From assembly GCA_043818535.1 (NCBI GenBank), contig JBDRFS010000033.1, positions 1 to 51,504 on the forward strand: a stretch of DNA of 51,504 nt, read 5' to 3'. A program made the position numbers and the translations under genes. This DNA is from Candidatus Woesearchaeota archaeon (GTDB lineage: Archaea > Nanobdellota > Nanobdellia > SCGC-AAA011-G17 > GW2011-AR17). Below the pieces are notes generated by a model that saw only the letters and a program-made list of their open reading frames with translations, had not been told where the DNA came from and did not search any database. Shown in pieces: positions 1 to 51,207 of the stretch. Each line of letters begins with the position of its first letter. The first letter of the stretch is position 1.

Positions 1-270
1 GAGATAAAGTTTTCTTTCTTCACTTTCTTACAACTCTTTGCAAGAGTTGCCAGACTTTTTGCTCCAACTTAGGTCATATTTGAGCTACATATCTAAAGAA
101 AAGAACTAGAGGGAACAATGCAGCTGCTGAAAAAAAAAGAAGTTTTCTAAAGAAAAAAGAAAGAATGTAGAATTAATGGGCAAGCAAATATAAAGCAAAA
201 TCTATTTTTAGACTCTCAAACCATCTAAACCTGCTAAAAATCAAGACGAGACTTGACAGTCACAAATCAC

Positions 271-287
271 CGAAACGTTTATATATT
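271..287 (+). promoter_or_regulatory. BRE/TATA promoter of the rRNA operon
   Basis: cgaaacg is directly followed by tttatatatt, about 250 nt upstream of the 16S 5' end. The same AAAC..TTTATATA architecture recurs in front of protein genes in this window. Confidence 0.55.
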
Positions 288-441
288 AGTTGCCTCCAAC
301 ATACTATACAGCCAAGGAGATAGATTCGTGATATCTTCCTGGATATCACCTCCATTCTAAATAATCCTTATATCAAGGATAACAATACGGCGGATGGATG
401 CTGCCGTATAATAATGAGTGCTTGATTGAATTATCAAGTAT

Positions 442-534: not shown

Positions 535-2007
<1,473 letters not shown>

Positions 2008-2016
2008 ATTTATTTT

Positions 2017-2047
2017 CACTGCCACAGCCAATATCTACCCATACATC
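2017..2047 (+). other. 3' strand of the pre-16S processing helix
   Basis: Reverse complement of 442-473 (see that feature). Confidence 0.7.
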
Positions 2048-2058
2048 TCACGATTCAT

Positions 2059-2147
2059 GGGCCGGTAGCTCAGTCTGGTAGAGCACCGCCCTTGCATATC
2101 GCCTTCAGGAAAGGCGGGGGCCTCGGGTTCGAATCCCGACCGGTCCA
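2059..2147 (+). tRNA. tRNA-Ala(UGC) with a 15-nt intron (2097-2111) at the canonical 37/38 site, in the 16S-23S spacer
   Basis: Manual cloverleaf. Acceptor GGGCCGG/CCGGTCC with the G3:U70 alanine identity pair. D arm GCTC-AGTCTGGTA-GAGC. Anticodon stem CCGCC/GGCGG with loop CTTGCA|intron|A. T arm TCGGG-TTCGAAT-CCCGA. Intron 3' part CAGG pairs with loop CTTG, leaving 3-nt bulges. No encoded CCA. Confidence 0.9.
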
Positions 2148-2262
2148 TTCACATTCATCATTCACTTGATACAATGCGCATCTTCTCGCGGGAGAAGGTG
2201 TAAGGGTGTCCATGTCCCTGGAAGCAGGAGCTTAAGGGTAGACTAGCATCCGTTAGATGTTC

Positions 2263-2282
2263 ATGGCGCTGTGCATAGGCGT

Positions 2283-2295
<13 letters not shown>
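2263..2295 (+). other. 5' strand of the pre-23S processing helix / helix 1
   Basis: atggcgctgtgcataggcgtgcactaaataaag pairs with 5201-5232 (ctttatttaatgcacgcctgcacagcttccat), about 30 bp with small bulges. Confidence 0.7.
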
Positions 2296-5200
<2,905 letters not shown>

Positions 5201-5215
<15 letters not shown>

Positions 5216-5232
5216 GCCTGCACAGCTTCCAT
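5201..5232 (+). other. 3' strand of the pre-23S processing helix
   Basis: Reverse complement of 2263-2295. Confidence 0.7.
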
Positions 5233-5276
5233 TTTTTCTTTGTGCTTTAGTAGGTAGTGTGAACTCTTTTTAATTT

Positions 5277-5317
5277 GGGAGCCTGCATTGCTTTCTTTTG
5301 TTTGAGAAGAAGGCCTT
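5277..5317 (+). repeat. Interspersed intergenic element, plus orientation (downstream of the rRNA operon)
   Basis: gggagcctgcattgctttcttttgtttgagaagaaggcctt matches the family core seen in most intergenic regions of this window. Confidence 0.6.
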
Positions 5318-6656
5318 ACCTGCTAAGAATCCTTAAAAGGATAGATATGAATGTTGCTTTTGTTTCAGGTTTTACTCCAGCCAGACTGCCATCTCTAATT
5401 TCCTTATCCTGTGGCATTACATGAGCACCCATATTGTCCTGGTGAGTCAGCTCATCCAAGTTCTTAATCCTTACTGATTCGCTGACAACCCTGTCACCAT
5501 CACAAGAGGGGTTATATTCCCACAATTGCGAATTTATCTGGTCCCAATAATCTTCATAACGGCTGCAAAGCATGGATCCGGATACAAATAAGGAGTTGCC
5601 TTCCCTGTGCAATCCTATGTTGTACTGCCTCCTGTTATTGTAGATGTCATCATTAAATGCAAGATAGCCCCTTTCACTTGAACTCCAGCCTAAAAGTTCA
5701 TCCTTAGTCATCAATAAGTCTGAAGCAGGTATTGCAGCATAGTCTGCGATGAAATCTCCATGGACATATAAGTCTAAAGAAGGCATATATGCCACACCGT
5801 GCTGGTCCCTCCAGATCTTATAGGCTGGTATGTTTATAGACTGCAGCACGGCAGGAACCACCATGCTGGTTGTCTGGCAGCCGACAATCCTTTCTTGAAA
5901 AAGCTCTTCCAGGGTATATCTCATAATGTTTCTGGGATAGCCGTAAGTATCTTCCCAGCCCCATCCGCTTTCTGCATGCAGGAAATTTTTCTCTGCCCAT
6001 TCTATTATCTTGCCTGCTGCCTGCAGCTGGCTTTCAGAACCTTCAGCCAGGCCTTTTGCCAATGGAAAGGCCTTATACCAGTCTTTTGAAGCGTTTCCCA
6101 GTCGCCAGCTGCTGTCTTCTGAGCTAAATTGAGCATTGTCTATAAGTGATGACATCGAATGGTATGATTCTTCATACCGCCAAAGGAGAAGTATTGCAAT
6201 CTCATCACGGCTGTAGTCCTTCAATGACCAGGGGACAATGTCGCTGCTTTCAAGCCACAAGGAATGTGCAACGTGGATCAAGAATATCCTTCCTTCCTCA
6301 TCCAGGTAACCATATCTCTCAAAAACAGCATCAAACTTGTTTTCCTTTTGGCTAATGGGCTCGTAAGGGTTGTAAATGTCCAGGATTTCCTCTAAGGCTT
6401 CAAACCCATTAATCTCAATTATTTTATCTCTGACAGGGGATAATGAGCCATAGGCATATAACAAGCCAATTGGCTTGATTGGTATTTCCATTGAAGGCAA
6501 AGGCGGTTCAACAAGGACTATTTCAACAGGAGGTATTGGTTTCTTAGCAGACCAAGGAAACCTAAAAGCTCCTGTTAGGTCTTCCCAGAACCCTGCTGCT
6601 ACTATTGTAGAGCAGAGTAACAATGCTATTACAATAAAAATTCCGGGTTTTTTCAA
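5316..6656 (-). CDS. Membrane-anchored/secreted transglutaminase-like (Cys-His-Asp papain-fold) protein
   Basis: 446-aa ORF with an N-terminal hydrophobic anchor MKKPGIFIVIALLLCSTIVAAG. GCQTTSMVVPAVLQSINIPAYKIW ... HGVAY ... HGD resembles the transglutaminase-core G-C..L-R-x-x-G-I-P-A-R / H / D pattern. The start codon is TTG, preceded by ggtgga. Confidence 0.5.
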   Translation of the reverse strand: MKKPGIFIVIALLLCSTIVAAGFWEDLTGAFRFPWSAKKPIPPVEIVLVEPPLPSMEIPIKPIGLLYAYGSLSPVRDKIIEINGFEALEEILDIYNPYEPISQKENKFDAVFERYGYLDEEGRIFLIHVAHSLWLESSDIVPWSLKDYSRDEIAILLLWRYEESYHSMSSLIDNAQFSSEDSSWRLGNASKDWYKAFPLAKGLAEGSESQLQAAGKIIEWAEKNFLHAESGWGWEDTYGYPRNIMRYTLEELFQERIVGCQTTSMVVPAVLQSINIPAYKIWRDQHGVAYMPSLDLYVHGDFIADYAAIPASDLLMTKDELLGWSSSERGYLAFNDDIYNNRRQYNIGLHREGNSLFVSGSMLCSRYEDYWDQINSQLWEYNPSCDGDRVVSESVRIKNLDELTHQDNMGAHVMPQDKEIRDGSLAGVKPETKATFISILLRILSR

Positions 6657-6818
6657 AGTCAGTCCACCTTATGTTAAGTTAATCTTTAAGATATTTAAAG
6701 TTTGCTCAATGGAAATGCAAAACGCTGGAAGCAAAGTAATTCTTAAAGAGCCAGAAAAGGTTTCAAAGCAGACTACTGCGGCTGCTATTCCTTATTTTAT
6801 ACATTCCTATAAAGTAAT

Positions 6819-7110
6819 CCGCAAGTCATAAGAGCTGAAAGCATCTAAGCTCGAAGGATACCGTGAAAAGAGACTCAGAGCACCTGCATAACACAGGTTT
6901 GATGGGGCTGGGGTGTAAGTACCGAGCTTCGGCGAGGTATTCAGCCCGCAGTTTCCAACAGCTTGACTTTATACTATTATTAGTGCACGCCTTTGTACAG
7001 CTTCCATTTTTTTCTTTGTGTCTTGGAAGGTAGTGTGAACTCTTTTTAAGAATAAGTTTTAGCAGTCTGCATTGCTTTCTTTTGTTACAGAAGAAAGCTT
7101 TACCTGCCAA
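6819..7110 (+). pseudogene. Orphan duplicate of the 23S rRNA 3' terminus (about 150 nt) plus its downstream spacer
   Basis: 6819-6966 aligns base-for-base with 5050-5197 (8 differences in 147 nt by my count). The similarity continues, more diverged, through the spacer to about 7110. No upstream 23S body is attached. Confidence 0.8.
7061..7100 (+). repeat. Interspersed intergenic element, plus orientation (inside the duplicated spacer)
   Basis: agcagtctgcattgctttcttttgttacagaagaaagctt is the counterpart of 5277-5317. Confidence 0.6.
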
Positions 7111-7239
7111 AAAGCCTCATGGCAGTTATAATTTTACAATAACGGTTTCTGCCCTTCTTTATCCTTAATGGCCTAGTCCTCTGAGCCGCCATTATGAGAG
7201 TAGCCTTAATCGTTCGTTTGATTCAGGTTGTTCGTCTGA

Positions 7240-7809
7240 TTAAGGAGGCGAACAGCAAAGGGCATCCAATGTCATAAGGTTATCCACAACCGCTTTATCG
7301 CAAGACCAGAACATAGCAGTAAATAGCCCTTCTCTTACGCCAATTGTGGCTACGCATGTTTGGCCTAAACTTGTGCACTTTTCATTGCCTGTTTCTAATC
7401 CATCCTGAGATATTGATTCAGAAACACAACTATTCAACATATCCAACACTCCTTGATATGTCACTTTAGGCTGTATTATTGTTCCTTCTGCGCTTGCTTC
7501 TGGACTGGTCAATTCTTCATATTCCCGTTCAGCGCATTTTTTGCCCATCCGGGATATTGCCTTGCAGTATCCACTTTGGCATTGAGAATCCACTGTACAA
7601 GGTTCTCCAATGCCTTTTTTTAATTCCACTGCTTCCTCAATTGGAGTTCCTTCAACAAGATTTTCCGTTTCCTCTATTGTTTGTGCTTTAGCTTTCCAAG
7701 AAAAGAACGGAAACTTAAAAGCTCCTGTTATGTCATCCCAAACCCCTGCTGCCACAAAGGTAGAGCAGAGCAAAAGCCCTATTACAATTATAATCCCTAT
7801 TTTTTTCAA
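7240..7809 (-). CDS. Cys-rich secreted/anchored protein, N-terminal paralog of 5316..6656
   Basis: 189-aa ORF. The N-terminus MKKIGIIIVIGLLLCSTFVAAGVWDDITGAFKFPF parallels MKKPGIFIVIALLLCSTIVAAGFWEDLTGAFRFPW. The mature part has 10 Cys. The start codon is TTG with ggaggtg 6 nt upstream. Confidence 0.6.
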   Translation of the reverse strand: MKKIGIIIVIGLLLCSTFVAAGVWDDITGAFKFPFFSWKAKAQTIEETENLVEGTPIEEAVELKKGIGEPCTVDSQCQSGYCKAISRMGKKCAEREYEELTSPEASAEGTIIQPKVTYQGVLDMLNSCVSESISQDGLETGNEKCTSLGQTCVATIGVREGLFTAMFWSCDKAVVDNLMTLDALCCSPP

Positions 7810-7972
7810 AGTTTAACACCTCCGTATATTATAAATAATAAGGCATTTAAGGTTTATAAATACCCCCTCCCAAACATGCATATTGCAAAATATATGTTGC
7901 ACTGCACATGCCCTAAACATAAAAAGAATACTCCAAAAATGCTTAAAAAGCAAGAGCCAAACCATCCATTCA

Positions 7973-8015
7973 GGAGCCATAAAAAGTTCCAAAATGAATT
8001 AAGGCGGGCTGCTAA
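7973..8015 (-). repeat. Left direct repeat flanking the HEPN/MNT cassette (member of the interspersed family)
   Basis: Aligns with 9223-9265. The 20-mer gaattaaggcgggctgctaa is identical at 7996-8015 and 9246-9265. It supplies the TAG stop of 8012..8632. Confidence 0.7.
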
Positions 8016-8632
8016 ACAGCATAAACTATCTTCTTTATCCTGTACTCAGCGCCAAAAGCCTTAAGCATTTGCTCAACATATTCCCTTTTTTCTCTGCTTA
8101 CCATTACGCCCCCTTTGCCAACTCCGATAATCTCCGTTTCATCTATTATCCCCGGATAGGTTTTAACAACTTTTTCCTTTCCTTTATAATACCAGCTCTT
8201 TCTCCCATGAAGGATCTGGGAAAGCCTTGTTTGTTTCACTCTATCTTTAACATTAAATGTGAAAATATAATAAGCTTTCAACCCAAGTTGTCCATTGCCC
8301 AATACAAACATTCCAGAAGCGTAAACGACCTCGCCTTCTTCAAGCATCTTCCTTAGCAAAGACCCATCCTCTTTTGATATGCTAATGGCCTGGAATTCTG
8401 GTTGAATCCTGACCCTTAATTTTGCATTTATCCTTGAAACCAAATCCTCAATCTTATCTATAAGGCTAGAGGGAACTTTCTTTTTGTTTACTACAATTAA
8501 TAAATCTATGTCAGAGTGCCTCTTGCTGTATTCTTTTCTCGCTAAACTGCCGTAAAGAAAAACTATAATAACATCCTTAAAATTAGGCATTTCTTTTACA
8601 AATTTGTCCACCGCAGCTTGTGCATCAATCAT
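8012..8632 (-). CDS. Minimal nucleotidyltransferase (MNT-type, Pol-beta fold) with C-terminal extension
   Basis: FLYGSLARKEYSKRHSDIDLLIVV matches the G-S-x(9-10)-D-x-D NTase signature. There is a 4-nt ATGA overlap with the upstream HEPN-like ORF. Confidence 0.65.
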   Translation of the reverse strand: MIDAQAAVDKFVKEMPNFKDVIIVFLYGSLARKEYSKRHSDIDLLIVVNKKKVPSSLIDKIEDLVSRINAKLRVRIQPEFQAISISKEDGSLLRKMLEEGEVVYASGMFVLGNGQLGLKAYYIFTFNVKDRVKQTRLSQILHGRKSWYYKGKEKVVKTYPGIIDETEIIGVGKGGVMVSREKREYVEQMLKAFGAEYRIKKIVYAV

Positions 8633-9000: not shown

Positions 9001-9222
9001 TTTATCTCCTGTTTAACATAATAAACAGCCACCCTATTTAAAGGTTTCTGTTTAATTTGTTGACAACTAGCCCCTCGCTTGTGCGACTAATCATAACAAG
9101 ATTATGAACGGTTATAAACTATTCGCTTATTTTTCGGAATATTTTCGGGCTATAATCTCTAAACAGTAAAAAGAGTCATCAACAGTACAAAACACGAGGG
9201 GTGGAAGCAAAACAATTGTCAA

Positions 9223-9265
9223 AGAGCCATGAAAAGCCTCAAAGCGAATTAAGGCGGGCTGCTAA
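9223..9265 (-). repeat. Right direct repeat flanking the HEPN/MNT cassette
   Basis: See 7973-8015. Here it lies 75-115 nt upstream of the plus-strand gene at 9339. Confidence 0.7.
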
Positions 9266-13304: not shown

Positions 13305-13437
13305 TGTATGCCATATATTAACATCTTATGTTAACCCTTTATATAAGCCTTTCTTTTAATATTGAAAGGATTCTTCATAAAGCTTTCCAGAAAAAACAGG
13401 GTTTATTTTCGGAGTTTACGGAAACTTTCCGGAAATC

Positions 13438-17721: not shown

Positions 17722-17822
17722 ATTCTTTCTTTTCAATATATCAGAAGCAAGCAATGCGGCTGTTGTAAGTAAAGGTCGTCAAGGCTTTCTTTTGAAACAA
17801 AAGAAGCAGTGCAGGCTGCTGA
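17722..17822 (-). repeat. Two tandem interspersed elements, minus orientation (17722-17766 and 17781-17822)
   Basis: Reverse complements read cagcagcctgcactgcttcttttgtttcaaaagaaagcctt and acagccgcattgcttgcttctgatatattgaaaagaaagaat. Confidence 0.6.
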
Positions 17823-17886
17823 AATAATAGGGCGTGCTTAATTTTTCTCCAAAAAGCTTATAAGACTGGCTTTATTAGCTTTAAGG

Positions 17887-20202: not shown

Positions 20203-20238
20203 CAAGAAGCCTGTGAAGAAAAGAAATGCGGCTGCTAA
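20203..20238 (-). repeat. Interspersed element, minus orientation, upstream of AsnRS
   Basis: Reverse complement reads tagcagccgcatttcttttcttcacaggcttctt. Confidence 0.55.
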
Positions 20239-20288: not shown

Positions 20289-21584
20289 ATGGCGTTCATA
20301 AAGATACAGGAAGCTATAGGAAAGTGTTCTGGAGAAATAGCCATAAGGGGCTGGGTATACAGGGAAAGGAAGCTTAAGGACAAAATCTTCATTGTTCTTC
20401 GTGATTCATCAAACATCCTGCAGTGCATAATAAAAAAAGAGGAAGTTTCTAATGAGGAATGGGATACAGCAGAAAAAATGCTTATCGAGAGCTCTGTGGA
20501 AATAGAGGGGAGCATAAAGGAAGACAGTAGGGCCCCAACAGGATATGAGGTGCATGTAACAAGGCTAACTTTAATTGGGGCTTCTGATGTCTTCCCAATT
20601 ACAAAGGACCAGAGCAAGGAGTTTCTGGCTGACAACAGGCATCTTTGGCTTAGGTCAAGAAAAATGACTGCTGTGCTAAAGATAAGGAGCACAATCTTTG
20701 GGGCGATACACGAGTACTTCAGAAGCAATGGATTCTATGAGTTCCAGTCTCCAATCTTCCAGTCCACCCAATGCGAAGGCGGCTCTACCTTGTTCCCTGT
20801 GAAATATTTTGGGGAAAAGCTGTACTTGACACAAACCTGGCAGCTGCAGGCCGAAGCAGGAATATTTGCCTTGGAGAACATATACTGCGTTGCCCCTTCT
20901 TTCCGTGCTGAAAAGTCAAAGACTTCCAGGCATCTGACTGAATACTGGCATGCTGAGATGGAGATCGTGTGGGACGGCTTTGACAAGCTGCAGGATTATG
21001 GCGAGGAATTGATAAAGTTCATAGTCAAGAAAGTTTTGGAAACTAACATAGGGGAGCTTGAAGTGCTTAAGAGGGATGTGGAGAAGCTGAAGATTACTTT
21101 AGAAAAGCCTTTCCCAAGGATGACTTACACTGAAGCATTAGATATTCTTAAGGAGAAATGCAGCATGGATGTTGTGTGGGGCAAGGATTTGAGAACAATT
21201 GAGGAAGATAAGATTATGGAGCATTATGACACCCCTATTATAGTAACCAATTATCCAAAGGAAGTAAAGGCTTTCTATATGAGAGAAGATCCTGAAGATC
21301 CTAAGGTTGTGTTGGGCTATGACATGCTTGCGCCTGAAGGCTATGGGGAGATAATTGGCGCTTCTGAAAGAGAGCCCGACATGGAAAATATTAAGGCAAG
21401 GCTCAGGGAGCAGGGTGAAGACCCAAAGAACTACGGATTCTACTTGGATACTAGGAAATATGGCAGTGTGCCGCATGCCGGGTTCGGGATGGGTGTTGAA
21501 AGGGTAGTTTCATGGATTTGCGGATTGGACAACATCAAGGATGCTATCGCCTTCCCTAGGACCATGACCAGGTATTATCCTTAA
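20289..21584 (+). CDS. asnS: Class IIb aminoacyl-tRNA synthetase, most likely asparaginyl-tRNA synthetase
   Basis: N-terminal OB fold (IRGWVYRERKLKDKIFIVLRD), motif 2 SFRAEKSKTSRHLTEYWHAEME and motif 3 GFGMGVERVV...AFPR. The AEKS-x-T-x-RHL-x-E-x-W pattern favours AsnRS over archaeal AspRS, but this needs an HMM or tree. Confidence 0.65.
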   Translation: MAFIKIQEAIGKCSGEIAIRGWVYRERKLKDKIFIVLRDSSNILQCIIKKEEVSNEEWDTAEKMLIESSVEIEGSIKEDSRAPTGYEVHVTRLTLIGASDVFPITKDQSKEFLADNRHLWLRSRKMTAVLKIRSTIFGAIHEYFRSNGFYEFQSPIFQSTQCEGGSTLFPVKYFGEKLYLTQTWQLQAEAGIFALENIYCVAPSFRAEKSKTSRHLTEYWHAEMEIVWDGFDKLQDYGEELIKFIVKKVLETNIGELEVLKRDVEKLKITLEKPFPRMTYTEALDILKEKCSMDVVWGKDLRTIEEDKIMEHYDTPIIVTNYPKEVKAFYMREDPEDPKVVLGYDMLAPEGYGEIIGASEREPDMENIKARLREQGEDPKNYGFYLDTRKYGSVPHAGFGMGVERVVSWICGLDNIKDAIAFPRTMTRYYP

Positions 21585-21677
21585 GGAGCACGCATTGTTT
21601 TGGAAGAATTCTTTTTGTGGGTTTGTAAGAGTAAAGACTGAGTCTTCCACGTAGCATATCGCCTAGCCAGCTAAACC

Positions 21678-24065: not shown

Positions 24066-24245
24066 ATTTGCACCTCCAATCAGCAGGGATGTAATAGGGG
24101 GTATAAATAGCTTTTCCTGGAGTCGGGCTTGGTGCGAAATATGTATTAGCAGCCAGATTCTGCATCCTGCTGGCAGGTGCTGATTGCAATATCATGCTCT
24201 GCGCATTATGCACGAGTCCCTGGAGTCCAATCTACAGGTCGTAAA

Positions 24246-24283: not shown

Positions 24284-24408
24284 AAAAAGAGGTGATACAG
24301 CCCGTTAGAATATATAACTCCTATATAAATGTTTCGGTGATTTAGTAATCTTGAAGTAGTGACATGCCTATCGTCAATTATTTATAATCCAAGCATTCTC
24401 CTATACCT

Positions 24409-24933: not shown

Positions 24934-24961
24934 AGGAGATACATCTTACATTTTTCTTATT

Positions 24962-25060
24962 GGGGCTGTAGTCTAGCCTGGACTAGGACTCATGCTTGGG
25001 GAATCGGATTGGGTCCGGTACAAAATGTGTGCAACCGGGGTTCAAATCCTCGCAGCCCCA
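24962..25060 (+). tRNA. tRNA-Pro(GGG) with a 24-nt intron (25002-25025) at 37/38
   Basis: Manual fold. Acceptor GGGGCTG/CAGCCCC. D arm GTCT-AGCCTGGACTA-GGAC. Anticodon stem CATGC/GTGTG with loop TTGGGG|intron|T. Variable loop CAAC. T arm CGGGG-TTCAAAT-CCTCG. Discriminator A. The intron forms a bulge-helix-bulge: central helix TTGG/ACAA (one G-A mismatch), 3-nt bulges GG|A and AA|T, and distal helix ATCGGA/TCCGGT. Confidence 0.7.
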
Positions 25061-25070
25061 TATTTATTTT

Positions 25071-25145
25071 TAGCAGCCCATTTTGTCTGTTGTGTTACAG
25101 CTTAAAGCCATAGCCTCAAAACAAAAGGAGCAGGCCAGCTGCCTA
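25071..25145. repeat. Face-to-face pair of interspersed elements (plus copy 25071-25109, minus copy 25114-25145)
   Basis: The plus copy reads tagcagcccattttgtctgttgtgttacagcttaaagcc. The reverse complement of the minus copy reads taggcagctggcctgctccttttgttttgagg. Confidence 0.55.
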
Positions 25146-25204
25146 AAAAATATTCTTCTACAAAATAGCAATAGTTAAATATCCCTGTGTATTCTAAAAG
25201 TACT

Positions 25205-25891
25205 ATGAATTACCCAAATGAAGGAAGGCTTATTGATTTTGTCAAAGATGGCCTGCAAAAAGGCTATGGCGAGGAAACAATCATTAACATGATGAGGGAG
25301 CATAACATCACTGAAGATGAGATGAATGAAGTGATGGAAGAGGCCAAGAGGGAGCTTGCAGGCATCCAGGCAGAACCATCCCAAGAAGAGTCTCCTGCAC
25401 AGCCTGAAGAGCCTGGGGAACAGCCAGCTCCTGCAGAAGAGTCTCCTGCACAGCCTGAAGAGTCTGGGGAACAGCCTGCTGAAGAAGTTCAAGAAGAAGT
25501 ACCACCAACAGAGCAAAGGATAGAGGAGGTTGGCAAGGAGCTTGAAGAGGCTGAAAGCATGGAGCAGGAAGAGACCCATCACCATGCGCTTGATGCACTC
25601 AGGCAGAGGGAGGGGCTGTACTCTGTGCTGCTTATTATCGTATCCTTTGCAATAATGCTTGCAGTCTACATTGGGAGGATGTTTGGTAGCGTTAGTGAGA
25701 TCCAATTAGAGGGCGGAACAACAGGCATTGGGCTAAGGCTGATAAAGGCTTTGTGGCCTTTGGCTTTCCCGCTGGCTGCAAACACTGCAAACTTCTTCCT
25801 GTTTAGGAGGCATTTCAAGCTCTGCCTAATAATAAGCATGATAATACTGGGTTCAGTCTTACTAGTGCTTGCTCTGCTGACGCTTTTTTAA
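25205..25891 (+). CDS. Membrane protein with acidic Pro/Glu-rich repeat linker (hypothetical)
   Basis: The ORF has a soluble N-terminal domain, a duplicated SPAQPEE(P/S)GEQPA repeat and three C-terminal hydrophobic segments. The start was set at the ATG at 25205, 22 nt after the TATA-like ttaaatat (the tracked ORF begins at a GTG at 25187). Confidence 0.55.
   Translation: MNYPNEGRLIDFVKDGLQKGYGEETIINMMREHNITEDEMNEVMEEAKRELAGIQAEPSQEESPAQPEEPGEQPAPAEESPAQPEESGEQPAEEVQEEVPPTEQRIEEVGKELEEAESMEQEETHHHALDALRQREGLYSVLLIIVSFAIMLAVYIGRMFGSVSEIQLEGGTTGIGLRLIKALWPLAFPLAANTANFFLFRRHFKLCLIISMIILGSVLLVLALLTLF
25385..25486 (+). repeat. 2 x 51-bp in-frame tandem repeat
   Basis: gaagagtctcctgcacagcctgaagagcctggggaacagccagctcctgca is followed by the near-identical gaagagtctcctgcacagcctgaagagtctggggaacagcctgctgaagaa. 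Confidence 0.85.
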
Positions 25892-27273: not shown

Positions 27274-27350
27274 AATCCCATATTAGTAGACTCTTTCTTT
27301 ATAAGATTTGGGTTTTTTTGGAGCCAGCATTGTATCTTATGTATCAATGG

Positions 27351-27396
27351 ATCGCAATGCTTTCTTCTGAAACAATGGGGGCATTGCAGGCTGCTA
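27351..27396 (-). repeat. Interspersed element, minus orientation, upstream of the NADAR gene
   Basis: Reverse complement reads tagcagcctgcaatgcccccattgtttcagaagaaagcattgcgat. A weaker plus-oriented partner lies at 27321-27341. Confidence 0.6.
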
Positions 27397-27433
27397 TTCA
27401 AGGAGAGAAAGTAAACCCCCAACAACAAAAACC

Positions 27434-28083: not shown

Positions 28084-28207
28084 TACGTTGAGAGCGTTTT
28101 TTCAGAAGCCCGTATTTTTACTCCTATCCTGCGTGGGAGGCATTTTATTGCTCTTTTCTCCGTAAAGCATATAAAGCATTCATATTTCCATACCTGAAGG
28201 TGAAAAC

Positions 28208-28693: not shown

Positions 28694-29326
28694 ATGGCAG
28701 ACAAAATGTATGAGAGGATAATGGAAAAGCTTGATCCTGAGGAGAGGGAATACCTCCAGAAGTTTGTAGATAATCTCGAGGAGCTTGGTAATAAGGATTC
28801 ACTTACTAAGCTCTATAACAAGAAGAAGTTCTATGAGGACCTGGAATCTGCAATATCGGAGGCAGAGAGGGAAAACAGCGACCTTGTGCTGTTTATGATG
28901 GATATTGATAATTTTAAGCAATATAATGATTCCAGGGGGCATGTTGCGGGTGACAAGGAACTTAAGAGTGTTGCAGACAGCCTTAGAAAGAACGTTGCCA
29001 AGTGCCTCACAAGGAGCTTGAGGAAGCATGAAAGGAACGTATACAGGTTTGGCGGAGAGGAAATAGGCATAGTAATCCCTAAAGCCAGCCTCGAGCACGG
29101 CTTGGTTATAGGCGAGCGTTTAAGGAAGGGCGTTGAAAAAGAATGCGGCGTTACAATAAGTGTTGGGGCGGCGAGCTACAGGCCGGTTTGCAGGTATCTT
29201 CCTGGATCCAAGGCAGAGCAGCTTGTAGAGGATGCAGACAGCGCATTGTATATTTCTAAGACAGAGGGCAGGAACAGGGTTAGTTGCCATAACAGGTCAA
29301 GGCCGACTTTGAGGATGAAGCAGTAG
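28694..29326 (+). CDS. Stand-alone GGDEF-domain protein (putative diguanylate cyclase, GGEEI variant)
   Basis: DSLTKLYNKKKF, MMDIDNFKQYNDSRGHVAGDKEL, YRFGGEEIGIV (29051-29065) and DADSALYISKTEGRNRV cover all canonical GGDEF blocks. I see no RxxD I-site five residues upstream. A roughly 35-aa helical N-terminus is the only extra sequence. Confidence 0.75.
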   Translation: MADKMYERIMEKLDPEEREYLQKFVDNLEELGNKDSLTKLYNKKKFYEDLESAISEAERENSDLVLFMMDIDNFKQYNDSRGHVAGDKELKSVADSLRKNVAKCLTRSLRKHERNVYRFGGEEIGIVIPKASLEHGLVIGERLRKGVEKECGVTISVGAASYRPVCRYLPGSKAEQLVEDADSALYISKTEGRNRVSCHNRSRPTLRMKQ

Positions 29327-29454
29327 AGCTCGGATATCTTTTCCTCCAAGAAGGATTCTTCATCAATGCGGCCCCTATAGGAAGTCCCAGAAAACAGTGT
29401 CTGTCAAGTCTCGTCTTGATACTCAAAAAGTAAGAGCTAAGCCTCGCTCTTCTT

Positions 29455-29530
29455 GGCCATATCAGCAGATAAGAACTTCCACGCCAACAAATCCAAAAGC
29501 GCAGGCTGCCTACTTTTACGCTTTATCAAG
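29455..29530 (-). repeat. Long-form interspersed element, copy A (core 29474-29510)
   Basis: The core aacttccacgccaacaaatccaaaagcgcaggctgcc is identical at 34 of 37 positions to 35745-35781 and related to 50100-50137. It lies 100-150 nt upstream of rpl1. Confidence 0.75.
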
Positions 29531-29627
29531 GCCAAAGTTTACAGCCCAGAAAATAGTAAGATTTATAAATAACCTCCATGTTCTAACAATAAACCCGTAA
29601 ACACTACGTGAAGTAGGAGGGAAAATA

Positions 29628-32552: not shown

Positions 32553-32997
32553 TGCTATTTACGCGATAATATTAAGCCTCTTGCCTGTTTCTGAATTGAG
32601 AGGGGGGATACCTTATGCAATCAGCCAGGGCATGAACCCTTTTTGGGCGTATTTTATTTGTGTTATACCTAATATCCTTATAATTTTTCCAGTATTCTTT
32701 TTTTTGGACTATTTACACCACCACTTCATAAAGTTCAGCCTTTACAAGAAGCTTTTTGACATCTACCTGAAGAGGGTGCAGAGGAAGCTTGAAAAGATGC
32801 TGCACTTGTGGGAGTATTTGATACTGTTTCTCTTTGTAGCCATACCTATGCCTGGTACAGGGGCTTATACTGGATGCTTGGTGGCTTGGTTGTTGAAGAT
32901 GAGAAGAGTTAATTCAATGATTGCAATAGCAGTTGCGGTCATGGTTGCCGGCGTTATTGTTACATTGGCTTCTGTGGGAATATTTTCTTTGTTTTAG
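32545..32997 (+). CDS. Small multi-TM membrane protein (Sm_multidrug_ex-like family)
   Basis: LLPVSELRGGIPYAI is the conserved E-L-R-G-x-I-P motif of the 'putative small multidrug export' family. It has four hydrophobic segments and an 8-nt overlap with the preceding gene. Confidence 0.55.
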   Translation: MNNAIYAIILSLLPVSELRGGIPYAISQGMNPFWAYFICVIPNILIIFPVFFFLDYLHHHFIKFSLYKKLFDIYLKRVQRKLEKMLHLWEYLILFLFVAIPMPGTGAYTGCLVAWLLKMRRVNSMIAIAVAVMVAGVIVTLASVGIFSLF

Positions 32998-33030
32998 CAG
33001 CCGCATTTTGAGAAGTTGTGAGCCCTCTGG
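32995..33030 (+). repeat. Interspersed element, plus orientation, beginning with the TAG stop of 32545..32997
   Basis: tagcagccgcattttgagaagttgtgagccc. Confidence 0.55.
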
Positions 33031-33146
33031 AGCGAGGGATCCCTTGAGTCGGGCGGTAACTAGGGTGAAGCGACTGACAGTATGGTGAGAAACCCGTTAA
33101 TCTAGTGCAAAGCACAATAAAATTTAAGAATTAAAAGCCCTGACCG

Positions 33147-33572
33147 TTAAATACCTAAACCAAAAGGACCGTTAGATTTTCTTCTTTTTGGAAGTGCACC
33201 AAATAGGCTTCCACCAAAAGGAGAATCATCTTTTTTCCTTGACTGTGCTTTCTTCTTTTCAGTTTGTTTTAATTTATCTTTATGGGTTTTAATATTATGA
33301 CAATTTGCACAAAGGGCCTGCAAGTTTGAAACTGTGCTTTTTCCACTTTTATAAACTTCTCTAATGTGGTCAAAATGAGTTGCTCGCATGTCTAATGGTT
33401 TTTTACACATAGCACATTTATTCTTTTGTCTTGCAAGAACCTCATTTTTTTGAGATTTGGCAACAGATTCTCTCTTTGGTTTACTATTTGATTTTGGTCC
33501 TAATCCAAAACCTCCTCCAAAAGGATTTGTATTTTTTCTTCCTCTTTGTGGTGCAAAAGGATTATCAAACAT
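33147..33572 (-). CDS. HNH endonuclease with Gly/Phe-rich basic tails
   Basis: CAMCKKPLDMRATHFDHIREVYKSGKSTVSNLQALCANCHNIKTH is a complete C-x2-C...H...N...C-x2-C-H HNH core. The termini carry NPFGGGFGLGPKS and SPFGGSLFG...GPFGLGI. A TATA box tttatatag lies about 25 nt upstream on the minus strand. Confidence 0.7.
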   Translation of the reverse strand: MFDNPFAPQRGRKNTNPFGGGFGLGPKSNSKPKRESVAKSQKNEVLARQKNKCAMCKKPLDMRATHFDHIREVYKSGKSTVSNLQALCANCHNIKTHKDKLKQTEKKKAQSRKKDDSPFGGSLFGALPKRRKSNGPFGLGI

Positions 33573-35558: not shown

Positions 35559-35629
35559 TTTTTTATTCTCCGTAATTACTTTTTTGTTAGGGGATAAGAC
35601 TTTATAAAGTTTAGCGTTGATTAATTATT

Positions 35630-35675
35630 GGCAGCCTGCCATGCTGCTTTTATTTCAAAAGAAAGCCTTGAGGCC
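35630..35675 (+). repeat. Interspersed element, plus orientation, upstream of the AOR gene
   Basis: ggcagcctgccatgctgcttttatttcaaaagaaagccttgaggcc. Confidence 0.65.
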
Positions 35676-35722
35676 TTCAGTTAGGTGCAATGCTGGATTC
35701 TTACATGAGGCAGTCAAAGCTA

Positions 35723-35790
35723 TGCCCATATTAAAACTAAAAAAAACTTCCACGCCGACAAATCCAACAGCGCAAGCTGCCATGCTTAAT
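35723..35790 (-). repeat. Long-form interspersed element, copy B (core 35745-35781)
   Basis: aacttccacgccgacaaatccaacagcgcaagctgcc. It faces the plus copy at 35630-35675 and lies 90-130 nt upstream of the transporter gene. Confidence 0.75.
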
Positions 35791-35876
35791 CAAGATTAAA
35801 GCCACCCAAATATAGAAAGGTTTAATAATGTTTTTTGCCCCTTTTATTTCTATGGTTAGTTCAGAAGAGGTGCCAA

Positions 35877-42433: not shown

Positions 42434-43054
42434 ATGAAGATTCTTAAGGTGCTTCTGGTGCTCATGATGCCTGTTATGGTATTGCTTTTTAGCTCTATGG
42501 CAATCATTATGGATGATGATTTCTTTTATGGCCAGTTTAACGAGAATGGTGTTTACTTGTCTGTGCCTGAGGCTGATGATGTTTACTATAATCTTTCTTT
42601 TTATCTGGTAAAGGGTGGGGAACTGGACCAGTCTTATTATTCGGAGACAGAGGTCAAGCATCTGGAGGATGTGAAGATCATTATTGGGACTGCATCCTAT
42701 CTTCTTGTTATACTCATAATATCTTCTATCTCTATTACAGCCTATCTTTTTGTCAGGAAGGACTATTCTGGTGCAGGCACATCTTTCTTTATTGGAGGCA
42801 TATTGTCTTTTGTGATATCTGTTGTGCTGGCTGCTTATGCGTATTTTTCCTTTAATGACTTCTTTTTAATGTTTCACCAGATAATGTTTAAGAATGATTT
42901 TTGGATGCTGCCTTCTTCTTCAATGCTGATAAGGCTTTTCCCGCAGGAGTTTTTCTTTGCTGCTGCGAAAAGGGTTGTTTTTAGCTGTATGCTTTTGTCT
43001 TCCTTTAGTGTTGTGAAGGGCATAGTGCTGAGGGTTTTGCCTAAGAAGCTTTAG
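42434..43054 (+). CDS. Integral membrane protein, TIGR01906/DUF1461-like
   Basis: An N-terminal TM segment, an extracytoplasmic stretch with ETEVKHLEDVK (E-x-x-H-M-x-D-V-like motif), then 3 TM segments. 206 aa. Confidence 0.45.
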   Translation: MKILKVLLVLMMPVMVLLFSSMAIIMDDDFFYGQFNENGVYLSVPEADDVYYNLSFYLVKGGELDQSYYSETEVKHLEDVKIIIGTASYLLVILIISSISITAYLFVRKDYSGAGTSFFIGGILSFVISVVLAAYAYFSFNDFFLMFHQIMFKNDFWMLPSSSMLIRLFPQEFFFAAAKRVVFSCMLLSSFSVVKGIVLRVLPKKL

Positions 43055-43124
43055 GAGCACGTTTTGTTTTGGTTTTTATTGTGGGTATGGGTCTAGGGAA
43101 GTCTATAAGAACTATTTATCCTGA

Positions 43125-43229
43125 CTAACAGTCGTTCCATCTCTCATCGTACTCATTGTCCCAAAGCTCTATCAGGCTGCTTGCTAATCCATGGTGGGAT
43201 TCCTTTTCTTGCTCTTTTTGTTTTTTCAT
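43125..43229 (-). CDS. Possible 34-aa small ORF (MKKQKEQEKESHHGLASSLIELWDNEYDERWNDC)
   Basis: It is below the ORF-track cutoff. On the minus strand the TATA-like ctttatatcc is followed by the ATG about 20 nt later. It may instead be non-coding repeat sequence (it contains agcagcctg). Confidence 0.2.
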   Translation of the reverse strand: MKKQKEQEKESHHGLASSLIELWDNEYDERWNDC

Positions 43230-43329
43230 GTTATTGTTGGTGGAGGTTGGATATAAAGCTTTCTGATAATTTTCGTGCTTTTTTTCGAAATGATACAGAA
43301 TTACGGTTTATTCTCGGAAAAGTGTGTCA

Positions 43330-43373
43330 AATACTCCCACACAAACAAAACCAACAACCCCGGCTTCTAACTA
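43330..43373 (-). repeat. Interspersed element (G/T-rich variant), minus orientation, starting at the pheT TAG stop
   Basis: Reverse complement reads tagttagaagccggggttgttggttttgtttgtgtggg. Nearly the same string occurs at 50980-51022 (plus) and 48751-48780 (minus). Confidence 0.6.
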
Positions 43374-46515: not shown

Positions 46516-46566
46516 AAGATTACCTTATCTCATTGTTTACTTTTATACTTTTCGGTAAATTTATTG

Positions 46567-46633
46567 GCGGCCCGCCATGCTGCTTTTGTATGTTAAGAAG
46601 GCTTTGCAATCGGGAGAGAACTCTGGCTGCTGA
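46567..46633. repeat. Face-to-face pair of interspersed elements (plus 46567-46606, minus 46598-46633)
   Basis: The plus copy reads ggcggcccgccatgctgcttttgtatgttaagaaggcttt. The reverse complement of the minus copy reads tcagcagccagagttctctcccgattgcaaagcctt. Confidence 0.55.
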
Positions 46634-46690
46634 TGGCAGCATTAAAATCCGATAAGTATTTATATTACAAATTTCCCACTAATAACCAGA

Positions 46691-48671: not shown

Positions 48672-48777
48672 AACGGCTAAGAAGCTGATAAGAGCTATAT
48701 AAAGCTTTTTACCCGTCTGAGTGTGTTTTCGCCCAAGTATTTCTTAAGAACACCAAACAGAACCCACAACCCGGCTG

Positions 48778-49977
48778 CTAACCTTTAACATCTTCCCTGA
48801 CAACAGTCATAGGAAGCGTGCTCTTGCCAGGCCAAATCATCCTTCCGGGATAGAAGGCTGTCTTTATTCCCGTCTTTGCATTGTCTGCAATTACCGCCCC
48901 AAACTTCCTCCTTCCAGTGGACTTGATGCCATCCTTGCTCATCGCCTTCACATGAGAATTATCATGCTTGAGGTTTGCAGTAATGGTTCCAGCACCTATG
49001 TTGACGCCTTCGCCTAAAATAGAATCCGCAATGTAAGACAGATGGCCGACTTTTGTGTTGTCCATTAATATTGAATTCTTTACAGTGACAAAATTTCCAA
49101 CTGTGCAGTTGTCGCCGATGGAAGACCCTGGCCTGATGTAAGCGCTTGGGCCAATAGTGCAGTTCCTGCCAATGATGCAGTTGCCTTCAATGTAAGTGCC
49201 GGCCTTTACTATGGTGCCTGCGCCTATGTGGACATTCCCCTTGATTGTTGCCCCTTCCTCCACTTCCCCTTCAATCTTGCTGTAAGATAGTTCATCAGTG
49301 ACCACTTCATTTGCATTCAGCAAGTCCCAGGGGTAGCCTGTCGGGAGCCAGTAGCTTTCCATTATTATGCCTTTCACCTTTATGTCCTTGCATAACATCC
49401 TCAATACATCAGGAATGTAATACTCTTTCTGGCCTTCTGCCTTAGTCATCGGATAATCAAATATCCTCTTGTCGAACATGAATCCGCCTATAGAGGCTAG
49501 ATTGCCAATGTGCTCCTTTGGCTTCTCCACTATGTCTGTGAGGTATCCTTCTTCATCTAAGGTAGCAATGCCGAACCTTTCAGGAGCATCTGTCTCCATA
49601 AGGAGCATTGCATAATCATGCTCAAGGACCTTCTTCAAGTCAGTGGCTGTAATAATGTCATCTCCATAATGCACAATAAACCTGTCTTTCAGGAGACCCT
49701 TTGCAAGAGACAATGCGTGCATAGTGCCTTTGGCCTCATCCTGCACAACATAGGTAATCTTCATGCCTTTGAACTCATTACCAAACTTGGCTGTAATAAG
49801 CTCTTTCTTGTAGCCAACTACAAGTATTGTCTCTTCAACACCGCACTCAAAAAGGGCTTCCAGGAGATGCTCTAGTATGAACCTGTTGCCCACTTTAAGC
49901 AATCCCTTGTGCTTTGTGAGGGTTAAAGGATGTGTCCTTGTAGACTCCCCTGCAGCCAGTATTACAGCCTGAACCAT
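48778..49977 (-). CDS. Bifunctional sugar-1-phosphate nucleotidylyltransferase / left-handed beta-helix acetyltransferase (archaeal GlmU-like)
   Basis: The N-terminal MVQAVILAAGESTRTHPLT (G-x-G-T-R-like NTP-transferase loop) and C-terminal hexapeptide repeats (IGRNCTIGPSAYI, IGDNCTVGNFV, LGEGVNIGAGT). Confidence 0.75.
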   Translation of the reverse strand: MVQAVILAAGESTRTHPLTLTKHKGLLKVGNRFILEHLLEALFECGVEETILVVGYKKELITAKFGNEFKGMKITYVVQDEAKGTMHALSLAKGLLKDRFIVHYGDDIITATDLKKVLEHDYAMLLMETDAPERFGIATLDEEGYLTDIVEKPKEHIGNLASIGGFMFDKRIFDYPMTKAEGQKEYYIPDVLRMLCKDIKVKGIIMESYWLPTGYPWDLLNANEVVTDELSYSKIEGEVEEGATIKGNVHIGAGTIVKAGTYIEGNCIIGRNCTIGPSAYIRPGSSIGDNCTVGNFVTVKNSILMDNTKVGHLSYIADSILGEGVNIGAGTITANLKHDNSHVKAMSKDGIKSTGRRKFGAVIADNAKTGIKTAFYPGRMIWPGKSTLPMTVVREDVKG

Positions 49978-50077
49978 CTTAACTCGTGTTATCTTTAGTT
50001 CATTTATAATACTTATGGAGATTTAAGACAGTAAATTACTGGCTGCTTCTTAAAAAATAGGTGCCTGCCAAGCATCG

Positions 50078-50155
50078 TCTTGGTAGCAATATTAGCAAAA
50101 ACTTCCACGCTTGCAGAGCCAAAAATGCAGGCTGCTGATTTTTATGCTTTATCAG
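50078..50155 (-). repeat. Long-form interspersed element, copy C (core 50100-50137)
   Basis: aacttccacgcttgcagagccaaaaatgcaggctgctg followed by atttttatgctttatcag (compare ttttacgctttatcaag in copy A). It lies 75-125 nt upstream of the gene at 50221. Confidence 0.7.
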
Positions 50156-50220
50156 CACCACAATTATCCTAGAAAAAATGCGGAAATTATATATATGGCA
50201 GAACACTATTAATAAGTATC

Positions 50221-50898
50221 ATGGAGAAACGTGTAACAATAACCATTGTAACGCTATTATTGGTCTTTCTTGTCACTGCAGGCATACTGATACAGCTTTC
50301 AGATGGCGGGATGATTTCGCTAACAGGGAAAAGCATATTCTCAGACCTCTTTGCCAAATTAATAGGCAAGGATCCCAAGGCAGAGAAAGTAAAGACTCCT
50401 ACTGGACTTCAAGAGGGTGTAATCCCTTCAGAGACTGACCTTGAGGGCAGGGAAATACCCGCACCTCCAAAAATGGAAGCTGAGGTTGAGTTAGGCTCTA
50501 CACCGGGAGCTGAAGAGATGAAAGAGTTGGAGGCTGACATTTCAGAAATACGTGGCCCAATGTGCAAGGATAGCGATAGGGGCAAGTTCTATTTCGACCG
50601 AGGCGCAGTAACTGACTTCAGCCCTTTATACGATTCTACCTGCAGGGAAGCGATGATTCAATGCTTTGACCTCTGCAATCATGATCCAACCGCTTGTGCC
50701 ATGTGCATAAGGCTTTTTCCTGACTGGTGCATGCCTTATACTGTGATAGACTTCTGCCCGGGGCAGACTAGCACTACTATCCCGATCCAATTGATAGAGT
50801 TTTATTGCAATCACGACAAGATTGATTATGTTTTCTATGTTTGCCCGGAGGCTTGCTGGAATGGGGAATGCGTGAGCTTGGATGAGCTGACCGGGTGA
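50221..50898 (+). CDS. Membrane-anchored Cys-rich secreted protein (hypothetical)
   Basis: The N-terminal anchor is VTITIVTLLLVFLVTAGILI. There is an acidic linker, and the C-terminal domain has about 12 Cys. Confidence 0.55.
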   Translation: MEKRVTITIVTLLLVFLVTAGILIQLSDGGMISLTGKSIFSDLFAKLIGKDPKAEKVKTPTGLQEGVIPSETDLEGREIPAPPKMEAEVELGSTPGAEEMKELEADISEIRGPMCKDSDRGKFYFDRGAVTDFSPLYDSTCREAMIQCFDLCNHDPTACAMCIRLFPDWCMPYTVIDFCPGQTSTTIPIQLIEFYCNHDKIDYVFYVCPEACWNGECVSLDELTG

Positions 50899-50979
50899 AG
50901 TTGGAAGCCTGGTTTTTTGGTGGAATATCCTTGTTGATTAATTCTTAGTTTTTTGGTATGTTATTCTGAAGAGATGGTT

Positions 50980-51145
50980 TAGTTAGAAGCCTGTGTTGTT
51001 TTGTGTTGACTGTGTGGAAGTGTTTTTGGGTTTCCAACCACCTATATAAAGCATTTGCTTTCCGGTTCTTTGGAAGCCAGCAGCTTTTGTAACCTTGGGC
51101 CGTTAAGGCTTTCCTTTGGAACAGAAGAAGCAGGACAGGCTGCTA
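50980..51145. repeat. Cluster of interspersed elements (plus 50980-51022, plus 51072-51112, minus 51105-51145)
   Basis: The strings are tagttagaagcctgtgttgttttgtgttgactgtgtggaagtg and ggaagccagcagcttttgtaaccttgggccgttaaggcttt. The reverse complement of the third reads tagcagcctgtcctgcttcttctgttccaaaggaaagcctt. Confidence 0.55.
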
Positions 51146-51207
51146 AAAAAGTTCTAAAAGAAATGAATAAAGCTATCAGCTATAAACAAATTTTAGAGGC
51201 GTTAAAA

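Follow-up and report, generated by a model that had tools for sequence, protein, structure and literature searches.

The window analysed here is the whole of a 51.5-kb contig from a Woesearchaeota-type DPANN archaeon, the gene content of which was assigned using Pfam. An archaeal 16S-tRNA-23S operon lies at positions 536-5209, and the housekeeping genes find their best matches among Woesearchaeota/Nanoarchaeota MAGs. When ORFs of at least 95 aa are counted as coding together with the RNA genes, coding DNA amounts to 44.9 kb and intergenic DNA to 6.35 kb. The focal locus is a spacer in which a complete unit of one repeat subfamily (termed here subfamily A; 35626-35705) is followed by a copy of another (subfamily B; 35723-35810), the two lying between divergent TATA boxes; the A unit sits about 20 nt beyond the TATA box of a divergent GAPOR-like gene. 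The genome itself is a tiny one, and its spacers are otherwise nearly zero. The closest relative, GCA_974558285.1, encodes AsnRS and PheRS-alpha proteins that are 80% and 81% identical to those of the window, and the SRP54 encoded in the window is at most 69% identical to the SRP54 of 80 GTDB species; exact-product look-ups for SRP54 and L12 of the window found no further contigs.

About 27 copies of a short sequence, termed here the head, occur in the window, where they make up about 15 units of 37-160 bp that together account for roughly one fifth of the spacer DNA. The common form of the head is (T)TAGCAGCC(N)GCAYTG, which is followed by a T/G-rich tail. Relative to dinucleotide-preserving shuffles of the window, TAGCAGCC is found 14 times where 2.75 occurrences are expected (shuffle maximum 7), GCAGCCNGC 13 times where 2.47 are expected (maximum again 7), and AGCAGCC 27 times where 12.9 are expected; no shuffle reached the observed count for any of the three. 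Ten of the occurrences of TAGCAGCC fall within 6.3 kb of intergenic DNA and four within the 44.9 kb of coding DNA (about 16-fold per base), and an unbiased comparison of intergenic with coding DNA places it first among enriched 8-mers other than those of TATA boxes. An iterated head PWM with a threshold of 12 bits or more matches 32 intergenic and 9 coding sites, a comparison that is partly circular inasmuch as the matrix was trained on intergenic matches. Overall, the intergenic-to-coding enrichment of heads is about 16-25x, and heads within coding regions occur at chance level. (The PWM also drifted onto the 3' half of the subfamily-A hairpin, TTTCAAAAGAAAGCCTTG; such matches were removed by hand before orientation was tested.)

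A sequence-only reading of the same DNA had listed about 30 copies of what it took to be one element family. The listed sequences are present at those positions, the above counts show their excess over shuffled sequence, and a family indeed exists; it is, however, heterogeneous rather than uniform, consisting of at least four subfamilies that have in common only a head of about 14 nt and a T/G-rich tail. Most of the list stands, except that the copies at 21640-21673, 17722-17766, 25114-25145 and 50060-50083 are weak and that further copies, absent from it, occur at 28100-28125(+), 50899-50920(+), 35688-35705(-) and 6764-6787(-). Likewise the ending AAGAAAGCC, which was described as frequent, is confined to the seven copies of subfamily A.

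These seven copies align with one another over 47 nt (TAGCAGCCTGCAnTGC-TTCTTTTGTTTCAAAAGAAAGCCTT) at nhmmer E-values of 1e-12 to 1e-15; in four of them the unit is longer, about 75-80 bp, and closes with an inverted, degenerate head (GGAGCCAGCAnTGC). Subfamily B (3 copies, about 70-100 nt), subfamily C (3 copies, about 60 nt) and subfamily D (5-7 copies, the GT-rich tails of which close with GTGGAAGT/GTGGGAGT) each have 40-70 nt in common among their own members. Context differs by subfamily as well, albeit in small numbers: the D copies all face a stop codon and the B copies all lie upstream of a promoter. Two of the A copies (5274 and 7057) arose by segmental duplication rather than by transposition, and the C copies possibly did so too. 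The copies are set out in Table 1.

Table 1. Repeat copies and units within the 51.5-kb window, with their strand and surroundings.
Feature	Position	Strand	Remarks
Focal left, complete subfamily-A unit	35626..35705	+	head TGGCAGCCTGCCATGC, hairpin/T-run GCTTTTATTTCAAAAGAAAGCC, degenerate inverted head 35688-35705; nhmmer E 1.7e-15
Focal right, subfamily-B copy	35723..35810	-	internal head GGCAGCTTGCGCTGTTGGATTTG...GTGGAAGT; upstream of CitMHS transporter promoter
Subfamily-A core	5274..5320	+	downstream of 23S rRNA; 3' end overlaps stop codon of convergent 446-aa gene
Subfamily-A core	7057..7105	+	within segmental duplicate of 23S 3' end and its downstream spacer
Subfamily-A core	17777..17824	-	upstream of HD-domain gene promoter; nhmmer E 9.8e-16
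Degenerate A-like copy	17725..17766	-	tandem with 17777..17824; orientation-rule exception on mutS side; E 0.013
Complete A unit	27318..27398	-	core 27353-27398, inverted head 27318-27332; midway between the divergent promoters of SRP54 and NADAR
Complete A unit	46562..46636	+	core 46562-46609, inverted head 46618-46635; between divergent PheRS-alpha promoter and promoter of 46691 gene
Complete A unit	51069..51148	-	core 51101-51148, inverted head 51069-51085
Subfamily-B copy	29455..29539	-	upstream of L1/L10/L12 operon promoter
Subfamily-B unit	50060..50165	-	outer inverted ends GGTGCCTGCCAAGCAT / GGTGCTGATAAAGCAT, internal head CAGCAGCCTGCATTTTTGG
Subfamily-C copy	6726..6787	-	TAGCAGCCGCAGTAG...; missing from the earlier list
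Subfamily-C copy	7952..8015	-	TAG is stop codon of nucleotidyltransferase gene 8012-8632
Subfamily-C copy	9202..9265	-	
Convergent pair	21582..21673	.	D-type head TAAGGAGCACGCATTGTTTTGG begins at AsnRS stop codon; weak inverted end TAGCTGGCTAGG 4 nt before next TATA box
D-type copy	43052..43095	+	TAG is stop codon of Lit gene; tail TTTTGTTTTGGTTTTT
D-type copy	43330..43373	-	TAG is stop codon of PheRS-beta; with 43052 copy bounds 316-bp spacer
D-type copy	48751..48780	-	TAG is stop codon of NTP-transferase gene; absent after the ortholog in locus L083
Two D-type heads	50899..51022	+	50899-50920 and 50980-51022, past stop of gene 50221-50898
D-like head TTTCAGAAGCCCGTATTTTT	28100..28125	+	20 nt past NADAR gene stop
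Head TAGCAGCCGCATTTTG	32995..33030	+	TAG is stop codon of Sm_multidrug_ex gene
75-bp convergent pair TAGCAGCCCATTTTG ... CAGCTGCCTA	25071..25145	.	immediately after intron-containing tRNA
37-bp mini pair TAGCAGCCAG ... CTGGCAGGTGCTGA	24147..24183	.	
Head TTAGCAGCCGCATTTCTTTTC	20203..20238	-	upstream of AsnRS promoter; overlapping inverted D-like head AAGAAGCCTGTG
Head TCAGCAGCTGCATTG with T-rich tail	85..130	-	upstream of rRNA promoter region

Within a unit, two convergent heads of 7-14 nt would form degenerate inverted termini; TA lies next to most of these heads. The head-to-head spans are 37, 40, 67, 74, 75, 76, 78, 92, 153 and 322 bp, with a cluster at 67-78 bp. Outside the heads, paired arms mostly resemble each other no better than shuffled controls do (p 0.04-0.8). 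Read inward from the head, tails are rich in T (39%, as against 19% A), a run of at least four T's occurring within 40 nt in 21 of 27 and a run of at least four A's in 2. RNA folds of whole units are not better than those of shuffles (z -2.1 to +1.6); the 9-11-bp hairpin of subfamily A yields a weak alifold consensus (-1.4 kcal/mol, a single compensatory pair), subfamilies B and D are without a comparable hairpin, and the Rfam matches in the window are to rRNA and tRNA, with no covariance-model match to the repeats. On account of these weak folds and the lack of an Rfam match, a structured-RNA reading was rejected. Pfam and protein checks of the 51.5-kb window revealed no transposase or RAYT/Y1 gene, and proteins of unassigned function in the repeat-rich 5-11 kb region carry no transposase signatures.

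Placement relative to genes follows a simple geometry. The GCAGCC end points at the nearer gene boundary in 20 of the 22 heads that are flanked by genes on both sides (binomial p=1.2e-4), and in all of the 9-10 spacers that hold both orientations the '+' copies lie to the left of the '-' copies, with heads outward and tails inward. The orientation rule thereby reduces to convergent heads within each spacer, whatever the strand of the gene, as expected of inverted termini: the GCAGCC end would face a gene because heads are the outer ends of inverted-terminus units in a genome whose spacers are otherwise nearly zero. Two sites depart from it, the tandem pair 17725/17777 and a set of three '+' heads (50899/50980/51069); because the true start of MutS is the ATG at 17664, the copy at 17725-17766 is intergenic and hence a genuine wrong-way exception. 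At six sites (8012, 21582, 32995, 43052, 43371 and 48778) the head overlaps a stop codon, which is TAG in five cases and TAA at 21582, as against an overall TAG usage of 30%, and these stop-fused copies hold the sole nearby T-runs for their genes. Of the roughly 25 3' ends of transcription units, about 10 have a head, and plain oligo-T is found at the remainder. On the upstream side, a head lies 4-49 nt from the TATA box (16-25 nt for six heads), and a reading of the head as a fixed-distance promoter element was rejected on the strength of this spread. The sequence-only reading had asserted that orientation is not random, that the leading TAG is often the stop codon itself (at 8012, 32995, 43052, 43371 and 48778), that spacers carry face-to-face pairs, and that mutS, with two tandem copies at 17722-17822, breaks the rule; on each of these points the present counts agree with it.

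Outside the window the family is narrowly distributed. Among 80 SRP54 loci of Woesearchaeota (at most 69% SRP54 identity) nhmmer found no match to family A, and the 32 occurrences of TAGCAGCC in the 1.24 Mb of these loci are at chance level and without element-like context. The density of head PWM matches is 0.56/kb in the window versus 0.043/kb in 1.27 Mb of other Woesearchaeota loci; a pattern scan for family A over JGI metagenome contigs and IMG/VR gave 0 matches; relatives at 70-74% identity (loci L082, L085 and L086) have no elements; and other Woesearchaeota loci of similar GC content hold no comparable interspersed repeats. (A comparison of 9-mer multiplicity across loci was swamped by AT-rich composition and was uninformative.)

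The closest relative, GCA_974558285.1, does possess the head: three short heads (TAGCAGCCGCAYTG) occur within the 13.4 kb of its locus L081, one at the TAG that ends an exosortase-like gene, one upstream of the start of an HAD gene and one after the AsnRS stop. These follow the same orientation rule and have tails unlike those of the window; to judge from these sequences, the terminus is conserved and the interior variable between the two genomes. Locus L083, which is syntenic with window positions 41.3-50 kb, is free of elements. In that locus the stop codons of PheRS-beta and Lit are directly adjacent (TAGCTA, 0 bp), whereas in the window they are separated by a 316-bp spacer that contains an ORF of 34 aa together with a TATA box of its own and that has at its edges two inverted D copies, the TAGs of which are the two stop codons. 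Because the C-termini of PheRS-beta and of Lit are of the same length in both genomes, the extra DNA begins exactly at the stops. Moreover, the closest relative has no element after the NTP-transferase stop, nor upstream of PheRS-alpha or L1. Such presence or absence at orthologous spacers is a species-level comparison, made at 80% amino-acid identity between the window and GCA_974558285.1. A further candidate difference, inversion of a Rad50-like gene in the relative via recombination between flanking copies, was rejected since the two proteins of about 681 aa are unrelated.

The family thus exists, is restricted to spacers, oriented, structured into subfamilies and restricted to one lineage, and varies in presence between relatives. 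We favour, with some reserve, the view that it is a lineage-specific family of short non-coding MITE/REP-like interspersed repeats, comprising at least four subfamilies, that fills the spacers of a compact DPANN genome. This view rests on identity within subfamilies, on a conserved terminus combined with a variable interior, on the narrow lineage range and on presence versus absence at orthologous sites; in particular, the 47-70 nt that are common within subfamilies point to copying over convergent function. A MITE-like mobile origin had been named as an alternative in the sequence-only reading, and it is now favoured by the subfamily identity, the lineage restriction, the element-free orthologous sites, the use of the head at a minority of 3' ends, the variable spacing to the TATA box and the convergent geometry. 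Against it, the termini are short and degenerate, similarity of the arms beyond the head is mostly not significant, the window encodes no transposase or RAYT, and the D and B copies keep to separate contexts.

As repeats of the MITE/REP-like kind, units of about 37-160 bp would each carry inverted termini of about 14 nt, (T)TAGCAGCC(N)GCAYTG, at their outer ends, with arms that are T/G-rich inward. They may have spread by transposition or copying, via a trans-acting enzyme that recognises the head, with TA as the putative insertion target. Because spare intergenic DNA is all but lacking from the genome, the insertions that survived would be those lying flush with the sole dispensable boundaries, namely the stop codon and the far side of the BRE/TATA promoter. 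At stop codons, TA together with the first G of the element would regenerate TAG--that is, stop-fused copies would read TAG because a TA-flanked terminus begins with G. On both strands, an RNA polymerase that runs out of a gene would meet T4-T5 runs within 10-35 nt of the head.

The elements probably double as oligo-T terminators, serving some 40% of 3' ends: such a role is likely at about 10 of the roughly 25 because the arms are T-rich in the sense of outward transcription and provide the sole nearby T-runs at stop-fused copies. Read-in towards promoters may also be stopped by them, and promoter-upstream copies are possible, putative sites at which divergent or antisense transcripts are stopped. 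The strong asymmetry of T over A between strands hints at selection for function, besides insertion geometry.

Sense-oriented T-runs are likewise the starting point for the explanation that the sequence-only reading had put forward, namely that the element is a dedicated terminator/insulator: head and T-rich tail would constitute a signal, under selection, that halts transcription as it exits a gene on one strand or the other (read-through at 3' ends, promoter-divergent or antisense transcripts at 5' ends), and both its spread and its orientation would have been kept by selection. The T-rich arms and their outward sense stand (sense-strand T runs in 21 of 27 tails versus A runs in 2), as do the six heads that begin at a stop codon where the element holds the sole nearby T-runs; the exclusive contexts of D-type and B-type copies, the retention of the head in the closest relative in both contexts, and the fact that several TATA boxes are near-palindromic (CTTTATAAAG), which makes divergent initiation conceivable, also speak for it. 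Several facts count against dedication: the signal is used at about 10 of about 25 3' ends, the rest having plain oligo-T; its distance from the TATA box is variable; the GC-rich head is unneeded for oligo-T termination; identities of 47-70 nt within subfamilies exceed the needs of a signal; and the tandem and same-sense exceptions (17725/17777 and 50899/50980/51069) depart from it. Since the element is optional, with orthologous gene ends in the relative lacking it, and was not found in the other Woesearchaeota examined, a dedicated, selected insulator is a minority reading, which we consider unlikely. Somewhat less probable again is domestication for gene-bracketing, in which a lineage-specific factor bound to the head would act in concert with the T-rich tail to end all gene-exiting transcription on both strands, thereby insulating every transcription unit, even from promoter-divergent transcripts that start at near-symmetric archaeal TATA boxes. 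Protein binding at boundaries--the head as an operator at which a lineage-specific chromatin or DNA-binding protein marks gene borders--would accord with the palindromic form of the commonest head variant (GCAG-C-CTGC, 4+1+4) and with the head being the sole part conserved between the two genomes; given that D-type heads (GAAGCCGGGG, GGAGCACG) lose the palindrome, that promoter spacing is variable, that the site is absent from relatives with a shared proteome, and that no candidate binding protein was identified, we regard such boundary sites as decidedly improbable.

Another explanation concerns how the repeats are copied. Rather than by a DDE enzyme, single-strand hairpin units bearing a 5' tag (TAG/CAG, compare GTAG) could have been copied by a Y1 (RAYT / IS200-IS605-like) transposase, as in REP/REPIN systems. 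REP/BIME/REPIN elements with RAYT resemble the window repeats in being extragenic palindromic units that combine a conserved short tag with adjoining palindromic sequence and that form inverted pairs, often at the 3' ends of genes, and subfamily A does have a 9-11-bp hairpin; roles in termination and mRNA stability have been proposed for them. The window repeats differ, however, in being without a stable GC-rich hairpin (that of A is weak and barely conserved, at -1.4 kcal/mol with one compensatory pair, and B and D have nothing comparable) and in the absence of RAYT or any other Y1 transposase from the window; to our knowledge, REP/BIME/REPIN elements have not been described in archaea. We therefore consider copying of this type improbable. 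Short non-coding RNAs, divergent from neighbouring promoters, starting near a head and ending in a T-run, are very improbable: the six heads at 16-25 nt from a TATA box do lie near the expected divergent start site, but stop-fused copies are without a promoter of their own, spacing is variable, and neither an Rfam match nor a conserved structure was found. Least credible is a motif like the DNA uptake sequence, by analogy with the paired DUS of Neisseria, which also act as terminators. The density of the short conserved motif, about 0.5 per kb, and its frequent arrangement as inverted pairs past gene ends fit that picture, but DUS/USS are common inside genes whereas coding-region occurrences are here at chance level, the long tails are common within subfamilies, and no competence genes were seen in the window.

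Two other known systems are instructive for the termination-like features. Oligo-T is the archaeal intrinsic termination signal, as Term-seq has established in Methanosarcina, Sulfolobus and Haloferax, and the repeats resemble such terminators in placing T4-T5 on the non-template strand a few tens of nt past a stop. They differ in that canonical signals need no head, are not repeats, and are not found in antisense upstream of promoters. SPRITE, like the window family, is a dispersed repeat that resembles its host's type of terminator; this is a bacterial hairpin-plus-T terminator in the case of SPRITE, in contrast to archaeal oligo-T with a GC-rich head here.

The closest likeness under the favoured MITE/REP-like reading is to MITEs, which can carry regulatory signals, examples being Neisseria Correia/NEMIS, the MITEs of Sulfolobus and Haloquadratum, and those of MITE-dense DPANN genomes (PMC11602168). 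The window repeats are small (<500 bp, the units being <200 bp), non-coding, multicopy and mainly intergenic, with putative inverted termini, many of them flanked by TA; they form subfamilies with common termini and different interiors; and they are taxon-specific and present or absent between related genomes. They differ in having strongly T-rich inward arms, termini fused to stop codons, no partner transposase within the window, and termini of just 7-14 nt that are degenerate. Among MITE features, terminal inverted repeats are given as at least 10-15 bp (PMC11602168) or as 4-30 bp (PMC10969869). A target-site duplication is another such feature, for which the TA beside many of the termini is a candidate. 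The sequence-only reading knew of no described element of this sort, which is too strong: a census places a Woesearchaea genome among the most MITE-dense of archaeal genomes, at 105/Mb (PMC11602168), a value below the roughly 300 units/Mb that is extrapolated from the 51.5 kb of the window.

Most likely, then, the family does not represent a new kind of genetic signal, but rather MITE/REP-like repeats with terminator-like arms. As such it offers a well-resolved case of a repeat family that saturates the intergenic DNA of a DPANN archaeon and whose termini join directly onto stop codons and the edges of promoters. It illustrates how small repeats can reshape even a reduced genome of about 1 Mb by bringing new TAG stops, terminators and the growth of a spacer from 0 to 316 bp. 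The family serves as a lineage marker and probably causes the assemblies of MAGs from this group to break. It also provides a natural test bed for asking whether repeats of this kind are co-opted as archaeal terminators or insulators.

The stray 23S rRNA 3'-end fragment found 1.6 kb past the rRNA operon is accounted for by a segmental duplication, which takes in the final ~148 nt of 23S rRNA (95% identical) and also includes the downstream spacer with its subfamily-A copy (that is, one of the intergenic repeat copies alignable over 47 nt). At the other end of the operon, the rRNA TATA box and the DNA directly upstream (window 240-291) consist of two blocks, each of which is found again, inverted, elsewhere in the window. 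Two tRNA genes are present, both of them long (91 nt within the rRNA spacer and 101 nt for the other), the extra length presumably corresponding to introns. The rRNA-spacer tRNA is called Gly(GCC) by ARAGORN, in contrast to the usual tRNA at this location, which is Ala; for the other gene the anticodon call is 4 nt and undetermined.

Coordinates of the features within the window
Feature	Position (strand)	Matching position	Identity
Segmental duplication	6819-7117	5050-5333 (source)
Promoter block	240-263	29397-29420, inverted, upstream of L1 operon	96%
Promoter block	264-291	24316-24343, inverted, upstream of Sua5-like gene	89%
tRNA gene, rRNA spacer	2058-2148
tRNA gene	24961-25061
Stem-loop	24246-24283
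GC-rich spacer	32998-33146
HNH endonuclease gene	33147-33572 (-)
34-aa ORF	43125-43229 (-)
GGDEF protein	28694-29326 (+)
Common N-terminal coding segment	6540-6659	7693-7812	78%
46-nt coding repeat, 2 copies	25384-25480		96%
Acidic uncharacterised protein	25187-25891
TCGGAA / CGGAAA words (examples)	9131-9150, 12477, 13405-13437, 43280-43320, 50176

Among the protein-coding regions, a GGDEF diguanylate-cyclase domain (Pfam E 6e-33) occurs as a stand-alone protein, which to our knowledge is unusual for an archaeon. The N-terminal segment common to two uncharacterised proteins (446 aa and 189 aa), both of which sit in the repeat-rich 5-9.3 kb region, gives a weak GIVxVP-like (pilin/signal-type) match; the two copies of the 46-nt repeat, 51 nt apart, both lie within the acidic protein. 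The 316-bp spacer between PheRS-beta and Lit, which the closest relative (GCA_974558285.1) lacks, contains a 34-aa ORF (MKKQKEQEKESHHGLASSLIELWDNEYDERWNDC) that has a TATA box of its own. The stand-alone HNH endonuclease gene (141 aa) is preceded, in window coordinates, by a 149-bp GC-rich spacer that starts with a head (the ~14-nt conserved terminus of the repeat family); an Rfam search of this spacer gave no match and its fold was not significant.

Within a 343-bp divergent spacer, beside an inverted promoter-like block, there is a perfect 16-bp stem-loop, CCCTGGCAAGAAACCC-CGCGAA-GGGTTTCTTGCTGGGG, the fold z of which is -4.5 on the '+' strand and -4.0 on the '-' strand. The stem-loop is possibly a small RNA that has escaped annotation; an Rfam search returned no match. 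The words TCGGAA and CGGAAA, finally, are strongly enriched in intergenic DNA of the window (TCGGAA 5 vs 1), often with a TATA box directly downstream, and they probably represent the local BRE.
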